Assembly (NCBI GenBank): GCA_046350615.1
Contig: JAXMAA010000002.1
Location: forward strand, 149,204 to 213,203
Direction: 5' to 3'
DNA from: Candidatus Saccharimonadales bacterium
Lineage (GTDB): Bacteria; Patescibacteriota; Saccharimonadia; Saccharimonadales; UBA7683
Length of the DNA stretch: 64,000 bases
Part shown: piece after piece, positions 3,380-51,574 of the stretch
Layout of the letters: each line of letters starts with the position of its first letter
Position numbering within the stretch: the stretch's first letter is position 1
The notes under the pieces: model-generated
Told to the model about the DNA's origin: nothing
Database searches by the model: none
Seen by the model: only the letters and a program-made list of their open reading frames with translations
Program-made: the position numbers and the translations under genes

Positions 3380-3414
3380 ATACTAAAAAGTGTCCAATTG
3401 GACGTTTTTTAGTA
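3380..3414. repeat. repeated palindromic motif, core GTCCAATTGGAC; candidate operator
   Basis: The 24-mer atactaaaaagtgtccaattggac (3380-3403) is identical to 13948-13971. Here it extends into a 34-nt near-perfect palindrome tactaaaaagtgtccaattggacgttttttagta. Confidence 0.6.
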
Positions 3415-13947: not shown

Positions 13948-13971
13948 ATACTAAAAAGTGTCCAATTGGAC
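13948..13971. repeat. second copy of the GTCCAATTGGAC motif
   Basis: 24/24 identical to 3380-3403. Lies 37 nt upstream of the metG-leader -10 box. Confidence 0.6.
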
Positions 13972-45691: not shown

Positions 45692-46250
45692 GAGTTGCCC
45701 GACTCTTAATCAGAAAAGCTATAATGCCAGCTATGCCAAACCCAAAAATTATACCTAGTGTTGGTACATAGCCTAGATAGTACAAGATGCCAGCGACTAC
45801 TGCGACTAGCCACAAAATTGGAGTGCTAATATAACGCCGAGCAATTTTGTATCCATTCCCAATAATAATGCCGCCGACTGCCGCTTGAACACCAATTGTA
45901 TAGCTACCTATATTAGTTTTGGCAAAATAATGAAAGTAGATAAAACAAAAAATCAGAGTCAATACTAAAGATGGGAGAAGATAACAAAAAGTTGCGAGTA
46001 CAGACCCAAAAACACCTTTTAGAAAGTAGCTTGTTTGTGCGGCAACAATTACTTGCGCCGGTCCCGGAAGTGCCTGCCCGGCCGCCATCGCAGTCTGAAG
46101 CTGCTCTTCACTCAATAGACCCCGCTTCTTCGAAAGTTCTTGTTCAACAAGCAGATATGTGGTTGACCACCCACCATACGCCTGTGCTCCAAGTTTAAGA
46201 TATAGCTGGCACAGCTGCCCTCGGCTGATATCCGCACGTTGTTTAGTCAC
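45684..46250 (-). CDS. chrA: chromate transporter (CHR) family protein, N-terminal-type half
   Basis: LKLGAQAYGGWSTTYLLVEQE, GQALPGPAQV. Confidence 0.75.
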   Translation of the reverse strand: MTKQRADISRGQLCQLYLKLGAQAYGGWSTTYLLVEQELSKKRGLLSEEQLQTAMAAGQALPGPAQVIVAAQTSYFLKGVFGSVLATFCYLLPSLVLTLIFCFIYFHYFAKTNIGSYTIGVQAAVGGIIIGNGYKIARRYISTPILWLVAVVAGILYYLGYVPTLGIIFGFGIAGIIAFLIKSRATHG

Positions 46251-48072
46251 GATAGCCCTCGGCTTGCTTACTAAACAGGTTGTGATATATGCCCGATTTG
46301 TTCTTCATTAAAGTTGTATGGTTGCCTTGCTCTAAAATTTTTCCTTGATCCAGAACTACAATTCTATCAGCTCGGCGTACGGTACTGAAGCGGTGACTGA
46401 CGATAATAGCAGATCGTGATTTGTAGGTGTCAAAAATTGAGTTGAAAATTTTATACTCCGCAGCGGCATCAATTGCCGAGGTTGGCTCATCTAAAATTAC
46501 CACACCAGCATCACGATAAAATGCACGAGCGAGCGCAACTCGTTGCCATTGACCGCCGCTTGGTTCGATGCCTTTTTTAAAACTTGCATCTAAAACTGTG
46601 TCATAGCCATGTTTGTATTTTTTGGTCAAAGTATCAACGCCACCAAATTGTGCAGCCTGATTGCGCAGTGAAGTGCTTGGTTTTTTCTTTGATCTGCCAA
46701 TAGTTATGTTCTCACCGACAGAAAACGGGTATTGGTTGAAATCTTGAAACAGCGTTGCAAGCTTTTCGTACCAGCTTTCAATCGCCACCTCTTTTAGATC
46801 TACACCATCTATCAAAATTCGCCCGCTAGTTGGGTGGTAGAAGCGTAACAGCAACTTAATGAGAGTACTTTTGCCTGCACCGTTTTCACCAACAATTGCG
46901 ACATGTTCACCACTTGTTATTTTCAAGTCGAGATTTTTAAAAACAGACTCAGCCTGACCTGGGTATGCAAAAGATACATTCTCAAAGATGATTTCCGGGC
47001 TAGAGGAAGTGATTTTAATACTGGGCTGCTTGTCGGTAATGTTTGGTTTTTTATCAACTAATTCAAAATAACTACCAGCAAATAACAAGCTTTCTTGCAT
47101 TCCCGAGAGTGTGCCCAATATTGCATTCAGTGCTCCGCCAATTCTGAGGAGCGCGCCAGAAAGAAAGAAGTATCTCTCGAGCGATATAGTATGCGATAGA
47201 AATTGTCTGAGCAGCACAACCGATCCAATGGTAGTACCAACAACCTCAATAATTTTAGTTGGCACCAATAATCTGCTGGCGTGACGATACTGTGCTTCTT
47301 GTTCTTTATAGAATATGCTGTTGAGGCTCTTAATTTTTCCGAGCAGAAAATCAGTGGCCTGTGTAGCTCGTGCTTCAAGTTGCCCCTTTGCATTACGGAG
47401 TATCCAATCAATGCCCCAGAATACATGTCTTTCATCTCCCTTGGCATCCCAAACGAACCAAAGCATCTTGGCCATACGACTTTCAGCTACAAGTGTTGGG
47501 AGTAGGAATATTGCAATAAGCGGCACTATCCACCAGGTTATTTGCGCTACCAGTATGGTGATTGCTAGGAATCGCAAAATTCCATACAGAAGATCTAAAT
47601 TCATGCCAGAAAGGTTGGCGATTTGCCAGGTATAGCCACTACTTACCTTATTGATAGTATTTCGCATTTCTTTATCGTAGAAGTCTCCGAGGTCGATTTT
47701 GCACAGCGTTCTCATGTATGCATCGGTCGACCAGCGAACGAACGCAAAGTATACCAATCGTTTCCCATAGCTCATCAGCAAAAACCCTAAGCCCGTGAAG
47801 ATGGTTGCGATGGCGTCAATAAATAGCCAGAGCCAAATGTCACTTGCGTGGCCGGATGTAGCAAACTCAGCCAATTTTGCACCCAGCCGGGCAGTTGCAA
47901 AAATTGCAGTTAAAAAGCTGGCTATTTCTAAAAAAGCACCAGCCATAAAGAACATAGCCCCAAGCGGCCGAATCCTTAGTGAAATCTTGTGCATGCGGAG
48001 ACTTAGTCGCAAGTTTTGAGAAAAGCCGAGTTTTGTTTGTGATTCCTCAGTGTCAGGCATGTCGTTACTCAT
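46243..48072 (-). CDS. ABC transporter permease/ATP-binding protein (type I exporter half)
   Basis: GENGAGKST, PSGGQWQRVALAR, VILDEPTS. Confidence 0.9.
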   Translation of the reverse strand: MSNDMPDTEESQTKLGFSQNLRLSLRMHKISLRIRPLGAMFFMAGAFLEIASFLTAIFATARLGAKLAEFATSGHASDIWLWLFIDAIATIFTGLGFLLMSYGKRLVYFAFVRWSTDAYMRTLCKIDLGDFYDKEMRNTINKVSSGYTWQIANLSGMNLDLLYGILRFLAITILVAQITWWIVPLIAIFLLPTLVAESRMAKMLWFVWDAKGDERHVFWGIDWILRNAKGQLEARATQATDFLLGKIKSLNSIFYKEQEAQYRHASRLLVPTKIIEVVGTTIGSVVLLRQFLSHTISLERYFFLSGALLRIGGALNAILGTLSGMQESLLFAGSYFELVDKKPNITDKQPSIKITSSSPEIIFENVSFAYPGQAESVFKNLDLKITSGEHVAIVGENGAGKSTLIKLLLRFYHPTSGRILIDGVDLKEVAIESWYEKLATLFQDFNQYPFSVGENITIGRSKKKPSTSLRNQAAQFGGVDTLTKKYKHGYDTVLDASFKKGIEPSGGQWQRVALARAFYRDAGVVILDEPTSAIDAAAEYKIFNSIFDTYKSRSAIIVSHRFSTVRRADRIVVLDQGKILEQGNHTTLMKNKSGIYHNLFSKQAEGYRD

Positions 48073-49840
48073 CTAAAAATCCTCCCGATTGATGTGCCCA
48101 GAGTTTGGCATACGTACCTTTTTTCTCCAGCAACTCTCGGTGCGAACCTTCCTCAACGATCTTGCCTTTATCCAGCACAATAATCCTATCCATCTTCTGG
48201 ATAGTCGAAAGACGGTGAGCAATTACGATTGCCGTACGTCCTTCCATTAATTTCCAAAGTGCATCTTGAATGAGCGCTTCACTCTCGCTATCAAGCGCAG
48301 ATGTCGCCTCATCAAGCAGTAAAATTGGCGCATCTTTGAGCATAGCTCGTGCAATGGCTACGCGCTGTTTTTGGCCGCCACTTAATTTAACACCGCGTTC
48401 TCCAACTAGTGTTTTATAACCTTCAGGAAGTTCGCCGATAAACTCATCTGCGTGTGCTAAGCGAGCAGCTTTTTGCACTTCTTCGTGCGAAGCATCAGGC
48501 TTGCCATAGGCTATATTTTCGGCGAGACTGCGATGAAACAAAAGCGGTTCTTGTGGCACGTATGCAATATGTTTGCGCAATGATTGCTGAGATAGTGTGC
48601 TGATATCAATGCCGCCGATACGAATTGACCCGCTGTTTATATCCATAAAGCGCAGCAACAGCTTGGTTATAGTTGTTTTGCCTCCGCCACTCATCCCGAT
48701 TAGGCCTATGCGTTCGCCTGGCTTAATGTGAAGGTTAAGGTTTTTGAAAAGGGGTGCTTTTTCTTGGTCGTGGGCAAACGTAACATCTTCAAACTCAACA
48801 GATGAATCCTGAAAAACAGTTCTTGTGACGTTTTTATGATCAAGAACTTGTGGTGTAATTGCAAGGATATCTGCCATGTCATGGGCATCACCAAATACAC
48901 GAGTGAATGTTCGGAATGTATTATTGAGATCCCATAATCTGCGCATGATTGCTATAGTAAAGTTAAGTGCGAGATAAATAACGCCAACCTCGATTGCGCC
49001 GTTCAGGGCAAGCACGATCGAGATAATGATCACCGCAATATTAATACTGCGCTGCAAACCGCCCGTTATCAACTCCTGCCACATGGTTAGTTTCATGGTT
49101 TTGATTGATTGGTCAAAAACCGCATCTACTTTTTGGGCCATTCTTGCTCGTTCACGATCTTCGCCAGAGAAGGATTTTACGGCAAGAATATTTGATATTG
49201 AGTCTGCAAGCTGACCCGTACGTTCGGTTTCTGCCGCCGCCCATTTTTTATTGTATGGTACAAGCTTCCTTCTGTAATACCACGTAATTGGTATATACAC
49301 TGCGCTAATAATAATGATGGCAACTGAGACCAAAGGTGCTTTTGGTGCTAAAATAACGGTAGTAGCTATCACCGAGACAATCAGCTTGAATACGTTCCAC
49401 GTTAAGGCATCGGTTAGCCTCTCGTATGAACCGACAAATTTGTTCACCTGGTTAACTAGTGAGCCTGCGAAGCGATCGTTAAAGAACCCGGTACTCATTT
49501 TCTGGAGATGATCAAAAGATGACAAAGCCAAGTCACGCATAATGCTCTCTTGTGTGCGCCAAAAAATAGGGATAATAACGCGGTTCCATAAAAGATGCCC
49601 AAAGACTTCACAAATAACTGCACCAAAAAGAATAAATGCAATGTTACTTTCTCGTAAGCCAGCAATATCACCACTGGCAAGCTTGGTGATGACAAAACTG
49701 ATAATAAGTGGTTGAGCAAAATCTTCTACCAGTTGCGCGACAATCATTAATGGGTAAATAGTCCCGATTTGTTTTTTATAGGGTTTGGTATGTCGCCAAT
49801 AATGGCCGATTATTTCTTTTGCGTTGCTGAATGATTGCAT
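48065..49840 (-). CDS. ABC transporter permease/ATP-binding protein (type I exporter half)
   Basis: GMSGGGKTT, LSGGQKQRVAIAR, LLLDEATS. Confidence 0.9.
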   Translation of the reverse strand: MQSFSNAKEIIGHYWRHTKPYKKQIGTIYPLMIVAQLVEDFAQPLIISFVITKLASGDIAGLRESNIAFILFGAVICEVFGHLLWNRVIIPIFWRTQESIMRDLALSSFDHLQKMSTGFFNDRFAGSLVNQVNKFVGSYERLTDALTWNVFKLIVSVIATTVILAPKAPLVSVAIIIISAVYIPITWYYRRKLVPYNKKWAAAETERTGQLADSISNILAVKSFSGEDRERARMAQKVDAVFDQSIKTMKLTMWQELITGGLQRSINIAVIIISIVLALNGAIEVGVIYLALNFTIAIMRRLWDLNNTFRTFTRVFGDAHDMADILAITPQVLDHKNVTRTVFQDSSVEFEDVTFAHDQEKAPLFKNLNLHIKPGERIGLIGMSGGGKTTITKLLLRFMDINSGSIRIGGIDISTLSQQSLRKHIAYVPQEPLLFHRSLAENIAYGKPDASHEEVQKAARLAHADEFIGELPEGYKTLVGERGVKLSGGQKQRVAIARAMLKDAPILLLDEATSALDSESEALIQDALWKLMEGRTAIVIAHRLSTIQKMDRIIVLDKGKIVEEGSHRELLEKKGTYAKLWAHQSGGFLDE

Positions 49841-50020
49841 TTTTTTAGGAATACGGCCTCCTGCCGTTGTTACGATTTACTGAAGGGCTATAATTTTAAA
49901 AAAAGTAAGTTTTAGTTAATGAATAAGTTGTACTCGGGCAAACGAATTGCTTGGTGGTACGGTGATTAAAGTGTTCGACATCGTTTTGCCCTTTCCTATT
50001 AGTTTTATATCAATCTTGAT

Positions 50021-50029
50021 ATTATACCA
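50021..50029 (-). promoter_or_regulatory. extended -10 box for the ABC exporter operon
   Basis: The minus strand reads TGgTATAAT, about 180 nt upstream of the start at 49840. Confidence 0.4.
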
Positions 50030-50088
50030 CCTATGTCAAGCGCCGTACAATAAACTATTAAAACGACGCCATCAACAGATAAGCAAGC

Positions 50089-50120
50089 ATCATAAAACTC
50101 ACGATCGTGAGAAATTGGAT
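50089..50120. promoter_or_regulatory. candidate operator, copy 1 (ATCAT-N4-CTCACGATCGTGAG-N4-TGGAT)
   Basis: Perfect 14-bp palindrome at 50098-50111, between the regulator stop and the ABC operon. Confidence 0.55.
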
Positions 50121-50123
50121 ATT

Positions 50124-50585
50124 TTATATAAGGGCCTTGGCTTCAGATAATTGGACCTCTTTCTCTAACCCGAGGGCCTGTATCTCGGCTCTTAGATATT
50201 CTTGGTGGTCAAACTTAGTCACCCAGACGCTCTTTTGAATTTGTTCGAAAGAAAGCTCTTTTAGTAGAAGGCAGAGGTGGTCGCGTTTTTTACGATCCGC
50301 TTCAGGAATATCGAATATTATCATCAGCACGCTTCCTGGCAGAGTAGGCGCGGTGAAAGGCAGCATGGCGTGGCGGCCTTTTGCCGTCAGCTCTGGCGCG
50401 CCCACTTCATTGATGATAATAAGCCCTTGCCGAATAGCTCGACTAAAAGCATTATTTAATTGTCTTGCAGAGATCTCGTGATTACTGGCAACATAGTTAA
50501 CAAGTGCAGCGCGATAGAGCCGTTTGTTGTGATCTGGCAATAGATTTTCAAGTAAATACCTTGTCGTTGTGCCGTATCTTCCCAC
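50124..50585 (-). CDS. PaaX-like transcriptional regulator (wHTH plus Cas2-like central domain)
   Basis: The C-terminal VLMIIFDIPEADRKKRDHLCLLLKELSFEQIQKSVWVT matches the PaaX/Cas2-like signature (..fDIPe..rk.Rd.l...L...gf..lQ.SVW). GTG start. Confidence 0.65.
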   Translation of the reverse strand: MGRYGTTTRYLLENLLPDHNKRLYRAALVNYVASNHEISARQLNNAFSRAIRQGLIIINEVGAPELTAKGRHAMLPFTAPTLPGSVLMIIFDIPEADRKKRDHLCLLLKELSFEQIQKSVWVTKFDHQEYLRAEIQALGLEKEVQLSEAKALI

Positions 50586-50596
50586 ATAGAAATTAT

Positions 50597-50628
50597 ATCA
50601 TTTATCTCACGATCGTGAGTTCTATGAT
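50597..50628. promoter_or_regulatory. candidate operator, copy 2 (ATCAT-N4-CTCACGATCGTGAG-N4-ATGAT)
   Basis: Fully symmetric 32-bp site (core 50606-50619) abutting the regulator's own TGaTATAAT box (50592-50600 region). Lies in the divergent gap to trhO. Confidence 0.6.
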
Positions 50629-50670
50629 ACTTTCTTTTGTGAGGGATAAGTTTTTGGTATGATATAACAG

Positions 50671-51574
50671 ATGAAGAAATCGACACAGCAGGAACCAAAA
50701 GTCATTTTGTATTATAAGTTTGTACCGGTAAATGATCCGAACATTACTATGCGTTGGCAGAAGGAACTATGTGCCCGGCTTGGCTTGAAGGGTCGAATTA
50801 TTATTTCACCACACGGCATTAATGGAACACTTGGCGGAGGTATTGAAAACCTCCGTGAATATAAGCGTGAGATGAACCGCTCGGTGCTGTTTAAGGGCAT
50901 CATGTACAAGTGGTCTGGCGGAAATGGCGAAGAGTTTCCGAAGCTTTCGGTTAAAGTTCGCGATGAGCTAGTGGCCTTTCATGCGTCAGATGAAATTGTG
51001 GTATCGGAGCAAGGGATTGAAAATGGCGGTGTGCACCTTAAGCCCGAACAGGTTCATAAGTTGATACAAGACCGGGGTGATGAGGTGATTTTTTGATGGC
51101 AGAAATGCGTACGAGGCGCAAGTGGGAAGATTCAAAAACGCAATTATTCCGGCCGTAGAAACTACGCCAGATTTTTTAAAAGAACTGGAAGATCCCAAGT
51201 ACAATGCCATTAAAGACCGACCAATTATTACCTACTGTACGGGTGGTATTCGTTGTGAAATTCTTTCAGTTTTAATGAAGAACCGCGGGTTCAAAGAGGT
51301 TTATCAAATTGATGGTGGCATCGTGAAGTACGGCGAAAAATATGGTGATGACGGATTTTGGGAAGGCACGCTGTATATTTTTGATGGCCGCATGAACCAT
51401 ACATTTAGCAGCCAGGCTCGTGATCTTGGGGAATGCATCCACTGCAAGGCCAAAACTAGTCGATTTATTAATTGTGCTGACAAAAGCTGCAATAAATTAA
51501 AACTGGTTTGCGGCAATTGTACTAACCGCACGTTTTGCGAGCAACATCAGGCAGACGTAGTGCGCACGGCATAG
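50671..51574 (+). pseudogene. trhO: tRNA uridine(34) hydroxylase TrhO (rhodanese, UPF0176/YceA), frameshift in a T6 run
   Basis: ILYYKFV...GRIIISPHGINGTLGG, then DEVIF-stop. Removing one T at 51089-51094 gives [31 protein letters not shown]. TGgTATGAT lies 7 nt upstream of the ATG at 50671. Confidence 0.85.

Follow-up and report, generated by a model that had tools for sequence, protein, structure and literature searches.

The DNA considered here is a stretch of 64,000 nucleotides from a Candidatus Saccharimonadales bacterium (the window, in which all positions are counted), and its subject is a small gene placed between two copies of a 14-bp palindrome, CTCACGATCGTGAG. The gene (50124..50585, minus strand) starts with GTG and encodes a PaaX/Cas2-like protein of 153 amino acids (aa), called mini-PaaX below; an identical protein is recorded from a Candidatus Saccharimonadales metagenome-assembled genome (MAG). 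Copy 1 of the palindrome (50098..50111) lies downstream of the gene and copy 2 (50606..50619) upstream of it, as an original prediction made from the sequence had placed them. Each 14-mer is the putative core of an operator, the full elements extending over approximately 50086-50123 (downstream, with no promoter) and 50594-50631 (upstream, tripartite). The gaps, first given as 13 and 21 nt, are 12 nt between the stop codon (50124-50126) and copy 1 and 20 nt between copy 2 and the start codon (50583-50585); the centers of the two copies are 19 nt past the stop codon and 28 nt before the start codon, respectively.

The palindrome pair and the encoded protein

No other match to CTCACGATCGTGAG was found in the window, even when up to two mismatches were allowed. 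It is the sole 14-nt palindrome that recurs there, and the two-copy repeat is the only repeat present within 49800-50700. Palindromes as a class are not enriched: 23 with perfect arms of at least 6 nt were counted in the 64 kb, compared with 9-24 in shuffled sequences. The similarity of the two copies extends beyond the core, as they align as an inverted repeat of 47 nt (50076-50122 vs 50595-50641) with 81% identity. The 32-bp stretch at 50597-50628, which had been described as fully symmetric, has 17-nt arms with 82% complementarity; symmetry holds for the pentamers ATCAT/ATGAT and for the 14-mer but not for the 4-nt spacers TTAT and TTCT, and is therefore incomplete.

Comparisons with other genomes are based on collected loci of 8 kb each (numbered with the prefix L). 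Two of them, L081 and L082, encode proteins 66-68% identical to that of the window in the same gene context, although the neighboring genes of L082 are fragmentary. The upstream 14-mer is identical to CTCACGATCGTGAG in both (4965-4978 in L081, 193-206 in L082) despite the divergence of the intergenic DNA around it, while the downstream copy reads CTCACGATCGTaaa in L081, where it is partly degraded, and tTCACGATCGTGAG in L082, where one base is changed. These data bear on the simplest alternative, namely that the two matches arose by chance or belong to a common dispersed repeat with no relation to the gene. Shuffling the window produced a mean of 0.10 matches to the 14-mer, and one shuffle in 100 did reach two matches; nevertheless, there are only two copies in 64 kb, both at the regulator gene, and the alternative is refuted by their conservation in the orthologues, by the family-wide pairing, and by the relation between protein residues and core described below, so that it can be set aside for all practical purposes.

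The classification of the protein, proposed at the outset, was borne out by profile searches: residues 88-150 match the Pfam family PF20803 (PaaX_M, Cas2-like) with E = 1.3e-13 and 51.3 bits, against a cutoff of 24, and this domain is precomputed in all 53 homologues. Matches to Cas2 profiles remain below threshold (PF09827, 23.5 bits vs 23.8; TIGR01573, 20.3 vs 24.5), and the Pfam scan of mini-PaaX returned no winged-helix family. The protein consists of an N-terminal winged helix (approximately residues 1-80) and a Cas2-like domain (approximately residues 86-150). In the AlphaFold2 (AF2) model, with a predicted local distance difference test (pLDDT) value of 86, helices span residues 25-36 and 40-52, and a β hairpin spans residues 56-66. 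Among full-length Foldseek matches, E. coli PaaX (8a39) and Rv0674 (3kfw) rank best, and weaker ones are the Lrp/AsnC structures 2p5v, 2dbb, and 4pcq. Taken separately, the N-terminal domain superposes on the DtxR/IdeR winged helix (2.5 Å over 71 residues), and the C-terminal domain superposes on Cas2 with a root-mean-square deviation of 2.6-3.3 Å, including the Cas2 of Cas1-Cas2/prespacer complexes. The C-terminal ligand domain of PaaX is not present, because the polypeptide ends at residue 153, just past the Cas2-like domain, and no sensor domain is evident in it. The family is large, with 3225 clusters (50% identity) at E ≤ 1e-10, and among its best 150 relatives in the representative library, protein length ranges from 65 to 239 aa; no paralogue was found in the 64-kb window.

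Family-wide pairing, promoter position, and the residue-base code

Relatives were sampled by a scan of a genome collection, which returned 80 loci. Almost all belong to MAGs of Saccharibacteria or Patescibacteria, and one genome often contributes several. Some are from MAGs labeled otherwise (Limnocylindria for L011 and L025, a Pacearchaeota archaeon for L074), which may reflect binning contamination or a wider distribution. In addition, L006 and L007 (CAYZCZ01 contigs 33 and 28) hold an identical unit with identical flanks on two contigs of one MAG, either by assembly redundancy or by segmental duplication.

At most loci, the gene is bracketed on both sides by the same palindrome, with CGATCG, CGGCCG, or rarely TGATCA at its center, and some loci carry perfect palindromes of 38-54 nt. 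A word of at least 10 nt is common to both 120-nt flanks of 61 of the 77 family genes, compared with 25 of 457 other open reading frames (ORFs) of the same loci; for words of at least 12 nt the counts are 50/77 and 4/457. When aligned on their dyads, the palindromes form an element of about 38 bp, which comprises a 14-bp core (positions 1-7 on each side), an A/T spacer (positions 8-12, mostly TTTT...AAAA around the core), and an outer arm (positions 13-19). The outer half-sites that the original prediction had noticed around both window copies are therefore real, since they match this family-wide arm, 13-19 nt from the dyad.

The position of both copies is constrained. The distance from the upstream dyad to the start codon is 28-32 nt, a mode with which copy 2 of the window agrees, and the downstream dyad lies 13-26 nt past the stop codon in 34 of 43 loci (median 20), which means that the element begins at the stop codon. 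Neither the orientation nor the function of the next gene affects the presence of this downstream copy, which is slightly more symmetric than the upstream one (p = 0.04). A fixed relative orientation, as in terminal inverted or direct repeats, was considered and rejected, because 16 pairs are inverted, 10 direct, and 17 ambiguous. Several paralogues in one genome carry distinct sites. L011 and L025, two paralogues of one MAG (DATHJH01), have a common core, TGTCCGGCCGGACA, with very different outer arms, a case that suggests that the outer arms may help to keep paralogues distinct.

The upstream copy is associated with a promoter. At 38 of 41 loci, its inward arm contains a -10-like hexamer with at least four of six matches that starts 16-18 nt from the dyad, and a score of at least 5/6 is reached in 22 of the 41; elsewhere such a score occurs in 1-4 loci per outward-arm class and in 11/41 on the inward arm of the downstream copy. 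The hexamer is followed after 6-7 nt by the start codon. The window conforms to this arrangement: the extended -10 box TGaTATAAT (50592..50600, minus strand, read from 50600 to 50592) stands 5 nt from copy 2, next to it as had been noted, and its hexamer precedes the GTG by the 6 nt ttctat. The boxes of the two orthologues, TGaTAAACT and TGtTACAAT, are likewise 5 nt from the core. Because there is no room for a Shine-Dalgarno site between the -10 hexamer and the start codon, the regulator mRNA is probably leaderless. Outward promoters in the arms were rejected as candidates, the outward -10 scores being low and independent of the orientation of the neighbor. A protein bound to the upstream 38-bp element would occupy approximately -46 to -8 of its own promoter, and RNA polymerase would thus be occluded, resulting in negative autoregulation; the autoregulation suggested in the original prediction is consistent with this location of copy 2. 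PaaX itself represses its own promoter, Px, by steric hindrance (PMC9493321).

The relation between protein and site was analyzed by calculating the mutual information between the columns of the protein alignment and the consensus bases of the half-sites, and two outstanding signals emerged, both in the Cas2-like domain. The first column, occupied by K118 in the window (codon 50234-50232, minus strand), belongs to the motif Q-x-S-V-W at the tip of the β2-β3 hairpin and tracks the central base pair: in the 41 sample loci, Lys, Arg, or Leu at residue 118 is found with CGATCG (27/27) and Gln with CGGCCG (14/14). The rule held in 22 of 22 loci that were not used to derive it and, summed over the sample, these outside loci, and the blind test described below, in 68 of 68. 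The second column, occupied by D102 (codon 50282-50280, minus strand), lies on the exposed face of helix α1, one turn from R98, whose column covaries too, and it tracks core positions 4-6. Arg at this position accompanies GTCCG (C at position 4, 21/21), Asp accompanies (T)CACG (7/7), and Asn accompanies GACG (6/6), pairings that would fit the textbook side-chain/base preferences Arg-G, Asn-A, and Asp-C.

All six combinations of Lys or Gln at residue 118 with Asp, Asn, or Arg at residue 102 occur, and in a tree inferred with both columns masked, at least 8 changes of state are needed for residue 118 and at least 15 for residue 102. A blind test was then made on five proteins, one of them only 32% identical, by predicting the core before the DNA was retrieved; the residue-118 rule was correct in all five cases and the residue-102 rule in four. 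The specificity is also visible in the distribution of single words, as TCACGATCGTGA occurs among the 167 collected loci solely beside genes of the Asp102/Lys118 type and is nearly always paired. No column of the winged helix covaries with the core at a comparable level, and its residues covary weakly with the outer arms (z ≤ 6.7), a signal possibly blurred by the variable length of the spacer. The pattern of covariation suggests that it is the Cas2-like domain, and not the usual helix-turn-helix, that reads the center of the site. With the exact 14-mer kept in the orthologues, the pairing found throughout the family, and a core that the residues predict, the early proposal that the palindromes serve as operators has gained considerably.

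Genomic context and the exporter

Next to copy 2, and divergent from the regulator gene, is trhO (50671..51574, plus strand), encoding a tRNA U34 hydroxylase. It is present as two reading frames in the window, split at a run of six T (51089-51094) where the orthologue at L081 has eight; the split is due either to a homopolymer error in the MAG assembly or to a genuine frameshift or pseudogene. The trhO promoter, TGgTATGAT (50656..50664, plus strand), ends 6 nt before the ATG at 50671 and is distinct from the palindrome, and its block TATGATATAACAGATG is kept in L081, L082, and loci without the palindrome-flanked gene. On the other side, beyond copy 1, lies an operon of two genes for an ABC exporter of the half-transporter type (591 and 609 aa; 46243..49840, minus strand), a neighbor but not a constant partner of the regulator gene. 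It has a promoter of its own, TTGACAtaggTGgTATAAT (50021..50039, minus strand), which is conserved in L081, L082, L005, and L008, and downstream of this promoter is a leader ORF of 21 aa (MSNTLITVPPSNSFARVQLIH; 49916..49981, minus strand) preceded by the Shine-Dalgarno sequence GGAAAGGG. Short ORFs are found at the matching position in L081, L082, and L005, and the GGAAAGGG block also in trhO/ABC loci that lack the regulator. The leader ORF recalls the leader-peptide attenuation of heterodimeric ABC exporters such as bmrBCD of B. subtilis; no known RNA families were found in 49700-50800.

This arrangement had led to the proposal of a sensor-efflux module, in which the protein would be a ligand-sensing repressor of both itself and the exporter, with copy 1 filling the spacer of an exporter promoter whose -10 would be the TATGAT arm. 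The synteny on which it builds is partly reproduced: the order trhO-regulator-ABC recurs in the window, L081, L082, L008, L009, and L164, and with the regulator inverted in L005; both neighbors always point outward in the trhO/ABC loci, as is the case for operators flanking a repressor gene, and the sequences on the outer sides of the two window copies agree at 24 of 30 positions. However, when the metagenomes were scanned with TrhO, none of the 80 loci returned contained the regulator, and 21 of them have the ABC exporter immediately next to trhO in divergent orientation, across a gap of 97-484 nt with no palindrome and usually with the same leader Shine-Dalgarno site. The exporter thus occurs beside trhO in 21 related loci with neither regulator nor palindrome, and its extended -10 promoter and leader ORF are conserved in cassette-less loci as well. 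Moreover, copy 1 lies approximately 58, 68, and 90 nt upstream of the exporter transcription start in three orthologues, so that its distance to that promoter is not fixed, and the outward arms have no consistent -10, whether the neighbor is co-directional or convergent. The spacer role of copy 1 is not supported by these findings, and the module as a whole, for which the PaaX ligand domain is missing as well, appears unlikely. A local effect on the transcription of trhO or the exporter may still exist.

No solo palindromes were detected in the empty trhO/ABC sites by the criteria used. Five of these gaps (L083, L098, L145, L147, and L155) carry a hairpin, G(T/A)(T/A)CGG-N5-CCG(A/T)(A/T)C, followed by GCGAGTAGAGGA, which could be a structured leader or another regulatory element.

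Elsewhere in the family, the neighbors are heterogeneous housekeeping genes, which also speaks against a dedicated exporter regulator: they include nucleoside diphosphate kinase (NDK), aminoacyl-tRNA synthetases, a tyrosine recombinase, YebC, LepA, and others. No paa genes are among them, neither in the window, where the neighbors are trhO and the exporter, nor at the other loci, and Pfam scans of the five palindrome-flanking window genes and of 79 neighbors returned no cas genes, with no search for CRISPR arrays elsewhere in the window. Both neighbors point outward in 16 of 40 loci, vs a background of 21%, and the downstream gene is convergent, 29-110 nt beyond the palindrome, in 17 of 40. 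In L002, L003, L004, L010, and L019, the unit lies between the genes for NDK and a tyrosine recombinase of the phage-integrase family, and the cores within this one context differ (GACGATCGTC, GAACGATCGTTC, CTCACGATCGT, and GTCCGGCCGGAC).

The window contains a second exact repeat, the 22-nt ACTAAAAAGTGTCCAATTGGAC (3382-3403 and 13950-13971), whose copies are tripartite palindromes in two intergenic regions, one between uvrD-like and G5/DUF348 genes and the other upstream of a metG-like gene. Its half-site GTCC equals the Arg-type cores of the mini-PaaX family, although the center is AATT, and it was not present in the 167 collected loci; it might serve an unseen paralogue as a remote site, or else another regulator.

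Proposed cognate sites, the downstream copy, and the nature of the cassette

The interpretation that we favor, with moderate confidence, is that the palindromes are the cognate sites of the encoded PaaX-like protein, that site, gene, and site form a self-contained cassette of about 560 bp, and that the upstream site serves autorepression. Comparison of the sequences gives good support to the view that the palindromes would be specific to the encoded protein and that the upstream one would govern the gene's own promoter. We infer binding, repression, and a role for the downstream site, next to the observed sites, their pairing and positions across the family, the residue-base code, and the empty sites. 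A dimer would span the tripartite palindrome of about 38 bp, with the Cas2-like domains on the dyad reading the 14-bp core. Residues 98 and 102 of helix α1 would read the bases 4-6 nt from the center and residue 118, at the tip of the β2-β3 hairpin, the central two base pairs, while the two winged helices would reach the outer arms 13-19 nt from the center. The cassette is accessory: in the lineage of the window, it occupies the divergent trhO/ABC promoter region, which is empty in most relatives.

The downstream copy would be a second operator of the cassette, promoterless and starting from the stop codon. It most likely tethers the repressor for cooperative looping or acts as a roadblock that insulates the cassette from its neighbors. 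Looping or tethering of the repressor near a promoter site that is itself constrained by the -10 is plausible, and a roadblock or insulator would fit a position at the stop codon. A repressor gene between similar operators is also known from the immunity region of phage lambda (cI, with OL and OR) and, as auxiliary operators, from lac, gal, and deo; as with cI, both neighbors are transcribed outward in the window and in the 16 of 40 loci mentioned above. By analogy with lac, gal, and deo, the auxiliary site could raise the occupancy of the promoter site. The present family differs from these systems in that the second site has no promoter, lies about 20 nt past the stop codon whatever follows, and shows no helical phasing, and in that no oligomerization domain is evident beyond the dimer.

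Several observations weigh against this interpretation. The spacing of the two sites has no helical phasing (Rayleigh test, periods of 10-11.2 bp, p = 0.3-0.9), so phase-dependent looping is without support, and the precise placement at the stop codon has no explanation if the downstream copy is a mere second operator. The predicted template modeling (pTM) score of the AF2 model is 0.47, and the relative orientation of the two domains is not fixed, so the assignment of the core to the Cas2-like domain comes solely from covariation; in addition, the residue-102 rule failed in the distant member L167. Finally, at L074, L011, L035, and L036 the two copies have the same core but differ in spacers and outer arms (e.g., 2139-2180 and 2744-2781 in L074; 2302-2347 and about 2897-2935 in L011), and yet the palindrome within each copy is perfect or nearly so. 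This is not accounted for by one protein that reads both sites, and hairpin or template-switch correction of the palindrome is hinted at.

The same loci are the reason why a hairpin role, though not favored, is retained: their two copies differ, and yet each keeps its self-complementarity. According to this alternative, the palindromes would be intrinsic or bidirectional terminators that insulate the gene, or they would form stem-loops, in RNA or single-stranded DNA, to which a Cas2 fold resembling an RNA recognition motif binds at the apical loop (GAUC or GGCC) and the upper stem. In line with this, the covarying residues belong to a ferredoxin-like domain, and RNA binding is common for that fold. 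A terminator scan picked copy 1 on the regulator strand (a 5-bp stem and a 4-nt loop, then TTTTATGATG), a weak match in which the stem is followed by TTTTAT; downstream copies lie about 20 nt past the stop codon, and upstream copies often 22-55 nt after a co-directional gene. The terminator reading was nonetheless rejected, because U-tracts are not enriched: the next 8 nt contain a mean of 2.9-3.2 T, at least 5 T are present in 8 of 43 downstream copies, and most elements have the order TTTT-core-AAAA, which is wrong for a terminator on either strand. Compensatory changes between copies do not exceed those at background or unconstrained positions across the family, striking though they are in a few loci. 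Furthermore, the upstream copy, which precedes the transcription start of the gene, would be left untranscribed at the 27 of 40 loci where it falls in a divergent promoter region, and the PaaX family binds duplex DNA (PMC9493321). Overall, the hairpin alternative is very improbable.

A more serious alternative is that the unit is a selfish or mobile cassette, whose palindromes are the ends recognized by the protein for movement or maintenance. Its distribution is suggestive. On the TrhO tree, cassette-bearing loci occur in three separate places, the window locus and L081 being sister to the empty loci L083 and L111, and the empty sites are clean; the trhO/ABC slot holds cassettes of five different core specificities, and the one at L008 is closer to cassettes of other contexts (L014, L015, and L012; 58-62% identity) than to those of its own slot. 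The cassette of L005 is inverted relative to that of the window and L081 between the same two outward-facing neighbors, and the same inversion is seen in three further context groups (L001 vs L002/L003, L032 vs L036, and L028 vs L034). Inversion with unchanged flanks is the expected outcome of recombination between self-complementary repeats. The tight boundaries at the start and stop codons, the several paralogues per genome with distinct sites, and the rapid joint diversification of the protein and its four half-sites point the same way, as do the invariant residues D92, E95, and E148, of which D92 is aligned with the YDV-motif aspartate of strand β1 in a Cas2 homologue, which we take to be the metal-binding aspartate of Cas2. 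In one possible variant, a circle with a single palindrome would insert itself at a matching palindrome of the chromosome and thereby produce two copies; in another, the Cas2-fold domain with its conserved acidic residues might be a site-specific nuclease or recombination factor.

Against mobility, scans with Pfam, NCBIfam, PADLOC, and PHROGs revealed no transposase or recombinase domain, the only matches being PaaX_M and the weak ones to Cas2, and no HUH motif or invariant tyrosine is among the invariant columns. A phage or defense link was not found either, with no PHROGs matches, the weak Cas2 hit alone in PADLOC, and no relatives in viral contigs. No solo or extra palindromes were found in the 64 kb or, for 46 of 48 loci, within 4 kb on either side, and no target-site duplication or scar was recognized at the empty sites. 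All pairs with at least 67% protein identity whose flanks could be compared share these flanks, so no recent movement is seen, and the flanking sites stay intact, which is odd for the target of a nuclease. A mobile cassette is accordingly judged doubtful, if worth keeping in view.

The closest mobile parallels are IS200/IS605 TnpA and RAYT, where a ferredoxin-fold gene of about 150 codons is likewise bracketed by cognate palindromes that are lineage-specific, among housekeeping genes. Mini-PaaX differs from them, as it has neither the HUH motif nor the invariant catalytic tyrosine and its palindromes are not dispersed but number two per locus; unlike insertion sequences, no multicopy mini-PaaX elements occur among the 8-kb loci and the 64-kb window. 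One transposon-like trait is present, namely, the presence/absence polymorphism with 21 empty trhO/ABC sites. A semi-autonomous nature of the unit is given a low probability, since neither a catalytic domain nor a solo site nor a recent copy was found. The boldest form of this idea, a self-propagating mini-cassette of Patescibacteria in which the Cas2 fold is a reprogrammable base-reading head that possibly cleaves or promotes recombination, is again unlikely, although insertion into a matching palindrome that regenerates both sites would explain the boundaries, the inversions, the empty sites, and the co-diversification of protein and site.

Among characterized proteins, mini-PaaX is closest to PaaX (8a39; Rv0674, 3kfw), with which it shares the N-terminal winged helix followed by the Cas2-like middle domain. 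By these two of three domains it is a member of the PaaX superfamily, but it is half the size and has neither the C-terminal ligand-binding domain, which in PaaX binds phenylacetyl-CoA (PMC9493321), nor the paa context. The PaaX operator, TGATTC-N27-GAATCA, is a long dyad-symmetric one with distant inverted half-sites, about 39 bp (PMC9493321) compared with about 38 bp for the putative mini-PaaX operator, and the geometry proposed above for mini-PaaX agrees with it; the upstream mini-PaaX element also overlaps the -10 of its own gene. However, the PaaX half-sites are about 27 bp apart around a center that is not sequence-specific, whereas the outer arms of mini-PaaX sites are about 22-24 bp apart around a conserved 14-bp palindrome that covaries with residues of the Cas2-like domain. 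Two further differences are the second site right after the stop codon throughout the mini-PaaX family and the probably leaderless promoter.

The C-terminal domain shares the fold of Cas2/VapD, with weak hidden Markov model matches to Cas2. In Cas1-Cas2/prespacer complexes, the N-terminus of Cas2 helix α1 contacts the backbone of the duplex. The mini-PaaX domain is, in contrast, fused to a winged helix and appears to read bases specifically, an activity that, to our knowledge, has not been described for Cas2. The two-domain plan of winged helix and ferredoxin fold is also that of the Lrp/AsnC (feast/famine regulatory) proteins, but mini-PaaX has no match to Pfam AsnC_trans_reg, and the RAM domain of Lrp/AsnC serves oligomerization and ligand binding, not base reading. 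The searchable literature contained no description of the mini-PaaX family, of operators that bracket a gene in this way, or of a Cas2-like domain that reads bases specifically.

The genomes of Candidate Phyla Radiation bacteria are tiny, with few recognizable regulators and almost no experimentally defined operators. Against this background, a large uncharacterized family is now tied to a defined DNA element of about 38 bp, and its two-sided sites, together with the patchy and invertible distribution, raise the question of whether its members are host regulators or semi-autonomous elements. Because the two-residue rule predicts the core from the protein alone, operators can be predicted for thousands of uncultured genomes. 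Should the rule arise from direct contacts, the Cas2-type ferredoxin fold would be a sequence-specific reader of DNA, a property that would bear on how PaaX is seated on its long operators and on the roles of Cas2-like domains outside CRISPR.

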